Below, piece after piece: positions 9,001 to 42,000 of a DNA stretch of 52,839 nt. Within the stretch, counting starts at the first letter, position 1; the number at the start of each line of letters is the position of its first letter. Source of the stretch: a virus (Duplodnaviria > Heunggongvirae > Uroviricota > Caudoviricetes). Location of the stretch: the IMG/VR virus record IMGVR_UViG_2880372215_000003; one strand, given 5' to 3'. Position numbers: made by a program.

Positions 9001-12000
9001 GATGGAAACTGTATTGCATGCACTGAAAGCGATGGGAAAAGCCAATTCTGTTGAACTGGCGGCGCGGCTTGATATCAGCCGTGAAGAAGTTCTTAACGAA
9101 CTGTGGGAACTCAAAAAAATGGCGTTGTTGATAAAACGGGTCACACCTGGTTTCTGGCTGTCGAAGGTGAAGCCGGGGTAACCGAAGGGCAGGCACTACA
9201 ACCTGAAGCGCCGGATGTGGTAACCGAAGAGGTCGCTCCAAAAGTTACCGCAGACATGATGGTTGAGTTTATCGGTCAGGATGGTGCTAAAACGTGTGAG
9301 GAACTGGCGGGTAAGTTCGGCGTCAGTACTCGCAAGGTTGCTTCCACGCTGGCGGTGGTAACCGCAACGGGGCGGCTGGCACGCGTTAATCAGAACGGTA
9401 AATTTCGTTACTGCATGTCGGGGGGTAATTTACCAGCAGATCCGAAAGCCGCGCCGGTAACGAAAAATGATGGTAAGGCCTTTCCTCAGCCAGCAGGTGC
9501 TGCGTTACCAGTCCGGGAAGCCGCAACACAGGAAGAAATTAAAACAGAAACTGTGGCGGACATTGTGCAGCCGTTGCCATCGTTTACCGAAACGCAAGCA
9601 GATGAGCTGATTTTTCCGTCCCTGCGCAGGGCAAACCTGGCGCTGCGCAGGGCGAAAAGTGATGTTCAGAAGTGGGAGCGAGTCTGCGCCGCGCTGCGGG
9701 AGCTGAACAAGCACCGGGATATTGTTCGACAGATTACTGATTCTTCCCGCCGTGTTGTATCGGAAAAGTGATAGCCGGAGGCGCTTATGGCGAAACCTTT
9801 TACACACGAACAGCGTGAAGAACTGAAGGCCCGAATTATCGGGCTGGTACGCAAAAATGAACGCATGACGATATCACAACTGGAGAGAGCGACGGGAGCA
9901 GGCTGGCATTCAGTCAGACGTTGCCTTGTGGATGTACTGGCTTGTGGCGATTTATACATGCCCGGTAAATACGGTGTTTTTACATCAGAACAGGTGTATC
10001 GCGTATGGCGTAAGGCAGCGGAGAAAGCAACCGACCAGACATTGATTCGAAAGTTACCAGACGGAGAAATACGCCGCTACGACAGACAACAGAACATAAT
10101 CTGTGGCGAGTGCCGGAAGAGTGAAGTTATGCTGCGTGTACTGGCGTTCTATCAGGGCAATTTTCAGGAGGCGGTACTGTGAGTGAATTAGCTATCAGGC
10201 TTCAATTGTCGCTGGCATTCGCATCAAAGGAGAATGAGATGACCACTTTTACAAAAGAGCAGTTAATCAGTCATGTTAGTGAAAATGTAAAGGCGATGAA
10301 ATTTGCAGTAAAACAGACAGCATTCAAAAATTCTCTCGAGGCAATTGAGTTGGATTTAGCACTGGCCCTTGTTGCTCAGGCTTCGCTGGAAGCAGAGCCC
10401 GTGCTTTATATGAATCGATTTACCGGAAAGACATTCTCACTGGAAGAGCAACCCGGTGCTGATAAGGAACCGGAAATATACGTGCCGCTATATGCTGCCC
10501 CGCCAGACAGCGCCGCCATGCTTCAGGCTGGAAACTTTCGGGAAAAAAAGGGTTCGTCAACCAATAATTTTCGGGAAATCTCGGAAACGTCAACCAACTA
10601 TCCGGTAACTCTGGATGATTGGATAAGCTGTAGTGAGCGAATGCCGGATGATGGTCAGCACGTAATTATTTTATGTGATGGCGCATTCGTTCTTTATGCG
10701 CAATATCGAGACGGTGAGTTTTTTGATGTAGTCCGTAATGGTGATGAATTTTTCGAAACACAGAGCCGCAATGTAACCGACTGGATGCCGCTACCAGAAC
10801 CGCCGCAGGAGGTGCGCCAATGATCTGGCCTGAAGCCTTTGCAATTACAGGCGTTGCTATAGCTATTGATTTTTTAGTATATGTTATTTGTCGGTGGGGG
10901 TAAAAACGTTCGCCGGGATTCACACCAAAGGAGGGAATATGTCGGATGATATTTCACTGGCAATGGAAGGTGCGCTGGCTGTTATTGCTGTTGTGGGCGT
11001 TTACTGCCTGGTTGTGTTTTTGATGGATCGACTAGGGAACTGAATTCATTACGATATGGGAATTCCCATATCGGGTAAAAACGGTTTGCGGTAAAGCGAG
11101 AGTTAAGTAGAATTGCTGCGGGTGCTTGAGGCTGTCTGCCTCGGGCATGCCACCGTAAGGCAGACAGAGAAAAGCCCCAGTTAACATTACGCGTCCTGCA
11201 AGACGCCTAACATTAATCTGAGGCCAATTTCATGCTAGACACATGTAGGTTAGCCTCTTACGCGCCGAAAGGCAAGGAGAAGCAGGCTATGAAGCAGCAA
11301 AAGGCGATGTTAATCGCCCTGATCGTCATCTGTATTACCGTCATAGTGACGGCACTGGTAACGAGGAAAGACCTCTGCGAGGTACGAATCCGAACCGGCC
11401 AGACGGAGGTCGCTGTCTTCACAGCTTACGAACCTGAGGAGTAAGAGACCCGGCGAGGGAGAAATCCCTCGCCACCTCTGATGAATCAGGCATCCTCAAC
11501 GCACCCGCACTTAACCCGCTTCGGCGGGTTTTGTTTTTTCCTGGCATTCTGGTTTACAATTCGCACGCCAGCCTGAACAACTGGCACCTGCTGCGCCAGC
11601 AGAGACAACCGATGGCGCACGATACCAAATTATACAATTCTGATGATTCTGCCGTCTTTGCCAGCAGGCGCGGACGGTGTTTTTACGCATTCAAATCTGA
11701 CTGGTACCAGCATCCCCCATGCACTGAAGAACAGGCCGAATGGCTCATTCAGTGTTACCGCAGGCGCGGATGCGAGGTTAAAAAAGCCCTTAGCCTCGAC
11801 TACCGTCACTGGATAATCTCCGTCAGGCTCCCTTACTCCGAACGGCCACCGCGTCCGTCCCGCACATTCCAGCAACGGATCTGGAGGTAATGTGCGGGTA
11901 TTACTTCGACCTGTTCTGGTACCGGAACTCGGTCTGGTTATCGTTAAGCCAGGCCGTGAATCAATGTCAGCATTCCATAACGGCAGAATACTGGTGGAGC

Positions 12001-39000: not shown

Positions 39001-42000
39001 GCTGTGTCTCCGTCCGGGAAAACACGGACGGCACCTTTGCCATCACGGCGGTGCAGCACGTACCGGAAAAAGAAGCCATCGTGGATAACGGTGCCCGCTT
39101 TGAGCCGCAGTCAGGTTCCCTGAACAGCGTCATCCCACCGGCAGTACAGCACCTGACGGTGGAGGTGAGTGCAGCTGACGGCCAGTATCTGGCGCAGGCT
39201 AAATGGGACACGCCGCGGGTGGTGAAGGGCGTGCGCTTCAGTCTGCGCCTGACCAGTGGTAAGGGAACGGATGCCAGACTGGTGACCACCGCCATCACCG
39301 CAGACACGGAGCACCGTTTCAGCGGCCTGCCGCTCGGGGAATACACCCTGACGGTGCGGGCGATAAACAGCTATGGCCAGCAGGGTGAACCTGCCACCAC
39401 CACCTTCCGGATTGCCGCACCGGCAGCACCGTCGCGGATTGAGCTGACGCCGGGCTATTTTCAGATAACCGCCACGCCGCATCTTGCCGTTTATGACCCG
39501 ACGGTACAGTTTGAGTTCTGGTTCTCGGAAAAGCGGATTGCGGATATCAGGCAGGTTGAAACCGCAGCCCGCTATCTTGGCTCGGCGCTGTACTGGATAG
39601 CTGCCAGTATCAATATCAAACCGGGCCATGATTATTATTTTATATCCGCAGTGTGAATACTGTTGGCAAATCGGCATTCGTGGAGGCTGTCGGTCGGGCG
39701 AGCGATGATGCGGAAGGTTACCTGGATTTTTTCAAAGGAGAAATCGGGAAAACACATCTGGCCCAGGAGCTGTGGACGCAGATTGATAACGGTCAGCTTG
39801 CGCCGGACCTGGCTGAAATCAGGACGTCCATTACGAATGTCAGCAATGAAATCACGCAGACCGTCAATAAAAAACTGGAAAATCAGAGTGCGGCAATCCA
39901 GCAGATACAGAAAGTTCAGGTTGATACAAATAATAACCTGAACAGCATGTGGGCCGTGAAACTGCAGCAGATGCAGGACGGACGCCTTTATATTGCGGGT
40001 ATCGGTGCCGGTATTGAGAATACGCCAGCAGGAATGCAGAGTCAGGTGCTGCTGGCGGCAGACAGGATTGCGATGATTAATCCTGCGAATGGCAACACAA
40101 AGCCGATGTTTGTTGGTCAGGGCGATCAGATATTTATGAATGAAGTGTTCCTGAAATATCTGACGGCTCCCACCATTACCAGTGGCGGCAATCCTCCGGC
40201 ATTTTCCCTGACATCAGACGGAAAGCTGACCGCTAAAAATGCGGATATCAGTGGCAGTGTGAATGCGAACTCCGGGACGCTCAACAACGTCACGATTAAC
40301 GAGAACTGTCGGGTTCTGGGAAAACTGTCCGCGAACCAGATTGAAGGCGATCTCGTTAAAACAGTGGGCAAAGCTTTCCCCCGGGACTCCCGTGCACCGG
40401 AACGGTGGCCATCAGGGACCATTACCGTCAGGGTTTATGACGATCAGCCGTTTGACCGGCAGATTGTTATTCCGGCGGTGGCATTCAGCGGCGCTAAACA
40501 TGAGAGAGAGAGCATACTGATATTTACTCCTCATGCCGTCTGATAGTGCGGAAAAACGGTGCTGAAATTTATAACCGTACCGCGCTGGATAATACGCTGA
40601 TTTACAGTGGCGTTATTGATATGCCTGCCGGTCACGGTCACATGACGCTGGAGTTTTCGGTGTCAGCATGGCTGGTGAATAACTGGTATCCCACAGCAAG
40701 TATCAGCGATTTGCTGGTTGTGGTGATGAAGAAAGCCACCGCAGGCATCAGTATCAGCTGAATTTTATAACCCATATACGGGCGCCAGAAATGGCGCCTT
40801 TTTTATTGCAGAAAAGCGAGAGGTAATTATGCGTAAACTTTATGCCGCCATTTTGTCCGCAGCCATCTGTCTGGCCGTATCCGGCGCGCCTGCATGGGCG
40901 TCTGAGCAGCAGGCCACGCTGAGCGCGGGGTATCTTCATGCCCGGACGAGCGCTCCCGGTAGCGATAATCTTAACGGGATTAACGTGAAATACCGTTATG
41001 AATTTACGGACACGCTGGGGCTGGTGACGTCATTCAGCTATGCAGGAGACAAGAATCGCCAGCTTACCCGTTACAGCGATACCCGCTGGCATGAAGATTC
41101 CGTGCGTAACCGCTGGTTCAGCGTAATGGCGGGGCCGTCTGTGCGCGTGAATGAATGGTTCAGCGCGTATGCGATGGCGGGTGTGGCTTACAGCCGTGTG
41201 TCGACTTTCTCCGGGGATTATCTTCGCGTAACTGACAACAAGGGGAAAACGCACGATGTGCTGACCGGAAGTGATGACGGTCGCCACAGCAACACGTCTC
41301 TGGCGTGGGGGGCTGGCGTGCAGTTTAACCCGACCGAATCCGTGGCCATTGATATTGCTTATGAAGGCTCCGGCAGTGGCGACTGGCGCACTGACGGTTT
41401 CATCGTGGGTGTCGGTTATAAGTTCTGATTAGCCAGGTAACACAGTGTTATGACAGCCCGCCGGTTCAGGCGGGCTTTTTTGTGGGGTGAATATGGCAGT
41501 AAAGATTTCAGGTGTACTGAAAGACGGCACAGGAAAACCGGTAGAGAACTGCACCATTCAACTGAAAGCCAGACGTAACAGCGCCACGGTGGTGGTGAAC
41601 ACGGTGGCCTCTGAAAATCCGGATGAAGCCGGTCGTTACAGCATGGACGTTGAGTACGGTCAGTACAGCGTTATTCTGTTGGTGGAAGGGTTCCCGCCGT
41701 CACATGCCGGGACCATCACCGTGTATGAAGATTCTCAACCGGGGACGCTGAATGATTTTCTCGGTGCCATGTCGGAGGATGACGTCCGGCCGGAGGCACT
41801 GCGTCGTTTTGAACTGATGGTGGAAGAAGCGGCGCGTCACGCTGAGGAGGCGAAGAAGAATGCCGGAGAGGCGGAGACGTCCGCGAGGAATGCCGGCATA
41901 TCAGCCAGTCAGGCAGAAGAGAGCGCGGCAAATGCTGACACTTCAGCAGGGGATGCATCGGAGTCAGCCCGGCAGGCGGCAGAAAGTGCAGCCGCTGCAA

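Follow-up and report, generated by a model that had tools for sequence, protein, structure and literature searches.

The locus and its closest relatives

The window (the whole stretch of 52,839 nucleotides that was analyzed) begins with a fragment of rspA at positions 1-84, followed by an integrase remnant on the minus strand, and carries on its plus strand a DUF1627/YdaW gene (9002-9771), a TerB-family gene ending at 15066, a lysozyme gene (18448-18980), a portal gene (26161-28738) and the tail-tip gene J (37288-40761). By sequence comparison, it is the lambdoid prophage Sp12 of Escherichia coli O157:H7, a defective element that occupies positions 2204089-2255027 of NC_002695.2 in strain Sakai (Asadulghani et al. 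2009, PMC2669165); phage annotation suggests that CP-933P is its counterpart in EDL933.

Alignments with Sakai Sp12 cover window positions 1-32603 and 32598-38602, and the two elements share their insertion context, gene order and left end (the rspA fragment), with ynfA adjoining the prophage in Sakai. Over positions 1-29494, they are identical save for seven one-base gaps. The Sakai element also has the truncated and frameshifted integrase, the frameshifted DUF1627 gene, the alternative start of TerB and the J lesions described below, but it differs in a mosaic tail segment (29495-32600), in which the window has 143 substitutions and a tape-measure gene shorter by 393 bp, and the Sakai element lacks the eight homopolymer contractions that the window has on top. 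In this tail segment, the window is identical to strains NCCP 15739 and AR-0428. Near-identity and synteny with Sakai Sp12, boundary genes included, together with a mosaic tail that matches other O157 strains, place the window among Sp12-type elements. Its nearest complete relative is that of NCCP 15739, which can be aligned with the window over the full 52,839 bases and shows 0 substitutions.

A sequence-only reading had listed seven frame breaks in the window, each said to be mended by a single change in run length, and had ascribed them to uncorrected sequencing error in a prophage that might be intact. The frame breaks are real, and five of the seven coordinates are exact (both A7 runs, in the ydaW-like and TerB-like genes, the lysozyme G5 run, the portal G4 run and the J T4 run), but those given for the integrase and for J near 38393 were wrong or imprecise. 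The list did not include the second portal break, the (GA)5 repeat in J or the four noncoding contractions (Table 1). Comparison with close relatives, one of the checks that had been proposed, told private sites apart from shared lesions: error is a fitting account of three of the seven listed sites (lysozyme G5, portal G4 and J T4), which are private and all contractions, but not of the other four (integrase, both A7 runs and J 38393), which recur in other strains.

TABLE 1 Window-only contractions and lineage-wide lesions, with the corresponding state in relatives
Feature	Positions	Strand	Class and state in relatives
Integrase remnant	85-749	-	Shared; true -1 frameshift at C4 660-663; 3' 615 nt (205 codons) deleted
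DUF1627/YdaW, A7 run	9113-9119	+	Shared; true -1 frameshift; A8 in intact gene of phage PhiR5_2
Poly-G tract, G12	14540-14551		Contraction, counted with the window-only sites; length differs between genomes (G13 in Sakai, G14 in NCCP 15739, G12 in ECP19-798)
TerB family, A7 run	14652-14658	+	Shared; true +1 frameshift eight codons past ancestral ATG at 14634; A6 in homologues
C4 run, noncoding	15275-15278		Window-only, one base; C5 in Sakai, NCCP 15739, ECP19-798
T7 run, noncoding or gene remnant	15450-15456		Window-only, one base; T8 in Sakai, NCCP 15739, ECP19-798
Lysozyme, G5 run	18617-18621	+	Window-only, one base; G6 in Sakai, NCCP 15739, AR-0428, ECP19-798
G6 run, noncoding	21447-21452		Window-only, one base; G7 in Sakai, NCCP 15739, AR-0428, ECP19-798, 86-24 NADC
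Portal, G4 run (first break)	27249-27252	+	Window-only, one base; G5 in all five compared loci
Portal, G5 run (second break)	27505-27509	+	Window-only, one base; G6 in Sakai, NCCP 15739, AR-0428, ECP19-798
J, -1 deletion	38393-38397	+	Shared; single G missing from GGCC[G]TAC at 38396/38397 relative to intact J (3,474 nt) of phage PPompW_EH1992; GGCC also in Sakai, NCCP 15739, AR-0428; GGCCC in ECP19-798
J, T4 run	39638-39641	+	Window-only, one base; T5 in Sakai, NCCP 15739, AR-0428, phage PPompW_EH1992
J, (GA)5 repeat	40502-40511	+	Shared; +2 insertion; (GA)5 also in Sakai, NCCP 15739, AR-0428, ECP19-798

Contractions found in the window only

The window differs from NCCP 15739 solely at eight indel sites, at which it lacks nine bases in all. 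Each of these sites falls in a run that is at least 5 bases long in NCCP 15739; such runs make up 3.4% of the sequence, giving p ~2e-12 for eight random indels all landing in them. All eight are contractions, by one base at seven sites and by one or two at the poly-G tract, and they are divided between genes (lysozyme, portal twice, and J) and noncoding DNA (four sites). Sakai has the run lengths of NCCP 15739 at every site, and AR-0428 and ECP19-798 have them wherever the site is present, save at the poly-G tract; at the remaining seven, each genome compared has the longer run if the site is present in it at all. The tract is the only one of the eight to vary in length among finished genomes (G12, G13 or G14), which may be true variation between genomes or error. 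Apart from its G12 form in ECP19-798, none of the window-only alleles was found in the Sp12-type loci compared, and none of 5,426 RefSeq complete genomes, a set that lacks the source record and in which these alleles are rare at most, gave a gap-free match to the window, the best scores corresponding to 3 and 4 gaps.

As to their surroundings, the poly-G tract is intergenic, between a tRNA-Arg gene and TerB, whose ATG follows 82 nt downstream; the C4 run sits between DUF3927 and a SASA-family esterase gene; and the G6 run lies 9 nt past the stop codon of an HNH endonuclease.

Within genes, the effects of the contractions are simple to trace. The G5 run splits the lysozyme gene into ORFs of 66 and 111 aa, both of which match Pfam Phage_lysozyme, and adding one G yields a protein of 177 aa identical to that of NCCP 15739; here, one change of run length does mend the gene, as had been supposed. 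The portal gene requires two, since translation repaired at 27249-27252 alone still stops at 454 aa, whereas repair of both runs gives 859 aa identical to NCCP 15739. The J allele (exact 66-mer of the T4 run) was found in 0 of 4,147 matching records and the portal G4 allele (exact 66-mer) in 1 of 1,221, and neither the 366-aa product of the G4 break nor any other portal fragment was found in a collection of 15 billion proteins. The two G6-to-G5 alleles recur, that of lysozyme (exact 65-mer) in no more than 11 records out of 799 that match and that of the portal (exact 67-mer) in 29 of 1,008, and their carriers overlap, with several records holding both.

These recurrent alleles sit in frameshift-laden, Mb-scale assemblies, and 11 of the 13 contigs bearing the lysozyme G5 fragment are at least 0.2 Mb in size (although note that this contrast in contig size is weakened by the multi-copy nature of the genes, which are prone to collapse in short-read drafts). 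In the 24 kb examined of one carrier, NZ_CP017251.1, 9 genes bear the flag "frameshifted"; over the first 19.4 kb, this assembly departs from AR-0428 by 14 homopolymer deletions, each of one base, and by just 5 substitutions. The window is unlike that assembly in having 8 sites in 52.8 kb, confined to runs of at least 5, against 14 in 19.4 kb in runs as short as 3. Real slippage could explain the recurrence of the two alleles as well as recurrent error does. That they arose through repeated, independent slippage at mutational hot spots, inactivating genes for lysis and head assembly in lambdoid prophages of O157, seems very unlikely to us, although it would account for the same alleles in the 11 and 29 unrelated complete genomes and, if true, would mean that prophages can be domesticated along a contingency-like route.

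Natural indels arise chiefly through slippage in runs, and all of the lesions, including the eight private ones, might be true, the isolate (perhaps a mismatch-repair-deficient mutator) having gained slippage deletions in an already dead prophage. With integrase and J already inactive, the element would be under no purifying selection, and both the G6-to-G5 changes seen in other records and the variable poly-G tract are compatible with such a history. Base substitutions, however, generally outnumber indels in both mutator and wild-type spectra, whereas the window has eight indels and zero substitutions over 52.8 kb; the changes go in one direction only; the recurrent alleles occur in assemblies, mostly of Mb-scale contigs, in which homopolymer deletions are dense and "frameshifted" flags numerous; and the J T4 allele and the portal products are unique to the window in the collections searched. 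We consider a wholly biological origin unlikely.

The likeliest origin of the eight private contractions is error in the sequencing or assembly of the record: run lengths would have been under-called, either at the sequencing step or when the consensus was built, and left unpolished. Length change confined to runs, absence (save for the poly-G tract) from otherwise identical assemblies and a one-way bias without substitutions are all found together. Under-calling of homopolymers in unpolished long-read, pyrosequencing or older assemblies yields spurious pseudogenes (e.g., PMC12007338 and PMC8011154), and the published error profiles of long-read assemblies consist mostly of false deletions in homopolymers (PMC12007338). 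The private sites resemble such under-calling in being one-base run deletions without substitutions, in splitting ORFs into parts that match the same family and in having alleles that recur in other frameshift-laden assemblies.

Lesions shared across the O157:H7 lineage

Five further lesions, each located against an intact homologue (from phages mEp460, PhiR5_2 and PPompW_EH1992 and among TerB homologues), recur unchanged in Sakai and NCCP 15739 and, where the site is present, in AR-0428 and ECP19-798, save for the GGCCC of ECP19-798 in J. In genomes annotated with PGAP, the pipeline of NCBI, the integrase, DUF1627 and J genes are flagged "frameshifted."

The integrase is 99.9% identical to that of phage mEp460 (427 aa), the single difference being C4 rather than C5 at 659/660, and homology stops at window position 85. 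Once repaired, the frame can be translated for about 222 integrase residues. Sakai, NCCP 15739 and ECP19-798 carry the gene in this same state, annotated "frameshifted; incomplete." The break had been placed at 590-610, which is merely where the shifted frame meets a stop (the ORF ends at 594); the T5 run at 591-595 is the same as in the intact gene.

Both A7 runs are present in Sakai, NCCP 15739 and ECP19-798. The exact 222-aa product of the DUF1627 gene occurs on 553 contigs across all contig sizes and in 549 blocks of the collection, in 341 of which the longest contig is no larger than 200 kb. The TerB lesion is defined against 143-aa homologues, which, from E. coli to phages of Pantoea and Erwinia, start MFGIFGKKARRAA, corresponding to A6; in annotations, the ORF is recovered by starting it at a TTG (14638), so that the O157 proteins are annotated as MVFLVKKARRAA, and this 142-aa product is present on 993 contigs. 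TerB thus appears in annotations as an intact ORF, unlike the genes flagged by PGAP. Each of the 15 top-ranked complete genomes has only 3 or 4 extra bases relative to window positions 9000-20000, which matches the window-only sites, so both A7 runs appear to be shared by all 15 (four genomes were read directly).

Three lesions interrupt J in the window; in Sakai, the gene is in three pieces. The one near 38393, formerly assigned to a G-run, is the loss of a lone G that lies outside any homopolymer run, the intact form being GGCCGTAC; at the (GA)5 repeat, intact J reads GAGAAAGA. The gene is open to 1,157 aa (98.4% identical to intact J) only with all three repairs, so that two further repairs, neither of them of an artifact, are still needed after that of the T4 run, and the lineage-wide lesions shift the reading frame over 2.1 kb of J.

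A reading of all frame breaks as sequencing errors in a prophage that is really intact has in its favor that most breaks lie in short runs of genes otherwise near full length and that eight sites do behave like errors. We nevertheless regard it as extremely improbable, and as refuted for the shared lesions. The shared lesions are the same in independent strains, and the exact DUF1627 and TerB products, on hundreds of contigs that include short-read-scale ones, confirm the run lengths of the record at shared sites, the outcome that the sequence-only reading had itself named as counting against it; the lost G and the +2 change in (GA)5 are not homopolymer indels, and the integrase lacks its 205 C-terminal codons through deletion. 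In experiments, moreover, Sp12 failed to excise, replicate or be packaged, and it was rated as defective in integration and in host specificity (PMC2669165).

We give scarcely any credence to the breaks being functional, whether as programmed ribosomal frameshifts, sites of transcriptional slippage or phase-variable switches. The window does contain one genuine programmed -1 site, the A_AAA_AAG heptamer at 31365-31371 between the tail chaperone genes G and T, and its poly-G tract is both long enough for phase variation and variable. The G/GT site, as in lambda-like phages, has an A-rich run, two adjacent ORFs and a canonical heptamer conserved in all relatives, properties that none of the previously listed breaks has, and a slippery heptamer with a conserved pair of ORFs was found only there. 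In the close relatives examined, one unbroken ORF spans each of the lysozyme, portal and J T-run sites, so a two-ORF layout is not conserved there; runs of G4 to G6 or of T4 do not form X_XXY_YYZ heptamers; and the shared lesions disrupt J over much of its length and delete half of the integrase.

Two layers of lesions and their consequences for annotation

It is highly probable that the window combines two layers of lesions, with the eight private run contractions being artifacts of the record and the five further lesions, as the comparisons show, being real and inherited. The prophage is defective in either case. The inherited set comprises the -1 change in the integrase C-run (with deletion of the 3' half of the gene), the -1 change in DUF1627, the +1 change in TerB, and the -1 (non-run) and +2 (GA) changes in J. 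Undoing the private contractions would restore lysozyme and portal, but the prophage would still be without a functional integrase and tail-tip protein, which refutes the suggestion that it may be intact.

That Sp12 is defective and immobile has already been described; the present finding is an ordinary one, and knowledge of Sp12 is unchanged by it. Its value lies in quality control for the annotation of this IMG/VR record, in which comparison with close relatives cleanly separates artifacts from inherited lesions. If the record were annotated as given, lysozyme and portal would be called pseudogenes and three breaks counted in J, although one of these three, like the breaks in lysozyme and portal, is probably an artifact. 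The opposite mistake, that of mending every run, would resurrect integrase, DUF1627, TerB and J genes whose breaks are genuine in the O157:H7 lineage and would also destroy the natural programmed frameshift of G/GT.

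An Sp12-type prophage and its closest relatives

By sequence, the element belongs to the Sp12-type prophages of E. coli O157. Among 5,426 complete E. coli genomes, full-length matches to positions 9000-20000, at a rounded 100% identity, occur in O157:H7 strains, and the match in Sakai falls in "prophage Sp12, lambda-like phage." The top matches to this segment all exceed the query by 3 or 4 bases, and the best matches to positions 20001-45000, in NCCP 15739 and AR-0428, are each 4 bases longer; thus, no record matches without gaps, and none of the RefSeq complete E. coli genomes searched holds a gap-free match to the window.

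NCCP 15739 and AR-0428 are the only two complete genomes with the window's tail-gene variant free of substitutions. Identity of the window with the 2001 EDL933 assembly was not supported; the note on the re-sequencing of EDL933 speaks of a gap and ambiguous bases and of no frameshifts. The alignment with NCCP 15739 spans the whole window, 52,839 bases against 52,848, and contains no substitutions; the window lacks 9 bases, spread over 8 sites. Against Sakai, positions 1-29494 show 0 substitutions and seven one-base gaps, each a base absent from the window. Positions 29495-32600 form a tail segment that is identical in NCCP 15739 and AR-0428 but mosaic relative to Sakai Sp12, with 143 substitutions and a tape-measure gene that is shorter by 393 bp. 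The segment runs from the HK97-gp10-like and tail-completion genes across the major tail gene and both chaperone genes (G and T) into the 5' part of the tape-measure gene. This arrangement points to ordinary recombination among co-resident lambdoid prophages. Downstream of Q (14210-14459) lie three tRNA genes, with anticodons CAT (Ile in the Sakai annotation), TCG (Arg), and TCT (Arg). Such a cluster is characteristic of Stx-type lambdoid phages; in the window, however, there is no stx gene after it.

Lesions shared among O157 prophages

Five lesions (in the integrase, DUF1627, and TerB genes and twice in J) are identical in Sakai and NCCP 15739, and AR-0428 and ECP19-798 share them wherever they hold the site; the one departure is GGCCC in ECP19-798 at the J site at window position 38393. 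We regard these five lesions as real. PGAP, the NCBI annotation pipeline, flags the integrase, DUF1627, and J genes as "frameshifted." In ECP19-798, J (locus 35825-39303) reads GGCCCTAC versus GGCCTAC in the window, and the Sp12-type portal gene (locus 26222-28806) is flagged as frameshifted with an allele other than the window's; lesions in portal and J therefore vary between O157 lineages.

The integrase region (85-900) is 99.9% identical to that of phage mEp460, the sole difference being C4 versus C5 at 660-663. Homology ends at position 85; the final 615 nt of the gene (205 of 427 codons) have thus been lost, and a fragment of rspA stands in their place. The sequence-only reading had put the integrase indel at 590-610, but the T5 run at 591-595 matches the intact integrase exactly, and 590-610 is merely where the shifted frame terminates. 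Its assignment of a break in J to a G-run near 38393 was likewise misplaced: alignment with the intact 3,474-nt J of PPompW_EH1992 reveals that one G is lost from GGCC(G)TAC at 38396/7, outside any run, and that two bases are gained in (GA)5 at 40502-40511.

The DUF1627 (YdaW) gene has A7 at 9113-9119 versus A8 in the intact PhiR5_2 gene. In TerB, translation from the ATG at 14634, which has a good ribosome-binding site, yields MFGIFGKK before the frame is lost at the A7 run at 14652-14658. PGAP annotates an unbroken 142-amino-acid open reading frame, and O157 TerB proteins have an annotated TTG start and read MVFLVKKARRAA; an unbroken gene is ruled out by the conserved MFGIFGKK N terminus of homologues from Enterobacterales and their phages (MFGIFGKKARRAA), which bears out the break noticed in the sequence-only reading and masked by annotation. 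The TerB product is present on 993 contigs and that of DUF1627 on 553. In 341 of the 549 blocks for DUF1627, the longest contig does not exceed 200 kb, a size that indicates short-read-scale assemblies. The earlier attribution of these two breaks to sequencing error thus gives way to true pseudogenes.

Homopolymer contractions private to this record

The eight sites that separate the window from NCCP 15739 are all contractions of runs that are at least 5 bases long in the relative. Runs of this length cover 3.4% of the sequence, so the probability that chance placed all eight in them is about 2e-12. G or C runs account for six of the eight, versus 59 of 329 among all runs of length ≥5. Four sites are noncoding, and four break genes (lysozyme and J once each and portal twice). 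With the exception of the poly-G tract, the longer run is present in Sakai, NCCP 15739, AR-0428, and ECP19-798 wherever they hold the site.

Private contractions and the genes of the programmed frameshift, in window coordinates
Feature	Position	Observation
Poly-G tract	14540-14551	G12 in window, G14 in NCCP 15739
C4 run	15275-15278	One-base contraction vs NCCP 15739
T7 run	15450-15456	One-base contraction vs NCCP 15739
G5 run, lysozyme	18617-18621	Contraction vs NCCP 15739
G6 run	21447-21452	Contraction vs NCCP 15739
G4 run, portal	27249-27252	Contraction vs NCCP 15739
G5 run, portal	27505-27509	Contraction vs NCCP 15739
T4 run, J	39638-39641	Contraction vs NCCP 15739
Gene G	31002-31376	
Gene T	31400-31681	Open reading frame downstream, -1 frame

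Leaving the poly-G tract aside, we infer that the private sites are assembly errors. False deletions in homopolymers make up most of the errors described in long-read assemblies (PMC12007338), and the private contractions fit this well-known class of under-calls that create spurious pseudogenes; a paper on O157 prophages from long reads (PMC5359411) makes no statement on homopolymer errors. Exact-allele searches of complete genomes recovered the window's J T4 allele in 0 of 4,147 matching records and its portal G4 allele in 1 of 1,221. The lysozyme G5 allele was recovered in 11 of 799 records and the portal G5 allele in 29 of 1,008, and these two alleles have the carriers 86-24 (NADC assembly), 2-6-2, AUSMDU00002545, and AR-0430 in common.

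One carrier of both alleles, NZ_CP017251.1 (2536008-2560072; strain 86-24), served as a positive control for assembly error. Within the 24-kb prophage stretch that carries the two alleles, PGAP marks nine genes as frameshifted. Alignment of 19.4 kb with the otherwise near-identical AR-0428 shows 14 one-base homopolymer deletions in the carrier, along with 5 substitutions. As judged from this alignment, the pattern shows how assembly error appears in these prophages, the same two G6 runs being affected. This RefSeq complete record is likely an unpolished assembly still in RefSeq. That the recurrent G-run contractions are instead real mutational hot spots seems highly improbable.

Assembly error also accords with the gene products. 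Of the 13 contigs with the frameshifted 66-amino-acid lysozyme fragment, 11 are ≥0.2 Mb, and a search of 15 billion proteins and 153 billion gene positions gave no record of either frameshifted portal fragment. When the missing bases are added, lysozyme (177 amino acids) and portal (859 amino acids) are identical to the NCCP proteins; with portal repaired solely at the site listed in the sequence-only reading, translation still ends at 454 amino acids.

The poly-G tract lies 82 nt upstream of the TerB ATG. Three of the compared strains carry it: ECP19-798 has G12, as does the window, whereas Sakai has G13 and NCCP 15739 has G14. The tract is either truly hypervariable or hard to sequence on every platform.

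State of the prophage and its programmed frameshift

The suggestion that the prophage may be intact is refuted because, with the artifacts removed, the C-terminal half of the integrase is still absent and J, which reaches 1,157 amino acids only with three repairs, stays out of frame over ~2.1 kb, and because Sp12 itself is immobile. Asadulghani et al. rated Sp12 defective for repressor, integration, general recombination, portal, head, and host specificity and found no excision, replication, or packaging (PMC2669165).

Although portal and head of Sakai Sp12 were rated defective in that 2009 study, portal (ECs_2248) is a single 2,580-nt CDS in the current RefSeq record, which has no ECs_2249; portal itself may have been split in the older Sakai sequence or annotation. 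The window's portal gene contains a 162-bp in-frame tandem repeat (27746-28278; 3.3 copies, 95% matches), which could make the gene prone to misassembly or to variation in length.

Programmed frameshifting at the sites listed in the sequence-only reading was rejected on sequence context and comparison with relatives. The sole programmed frameshift in the window is the canonical G/GT site, an A_AAA_AAG slippery heptamer (31365-31371) just before the stop of the tail assembly chaperone gene; it is the natural programmed shift of lambda-like phages. There is no new biology in the frame breaks themselves, and an automatic step that repaired every run would wrongly erase this G/GT frameshift.
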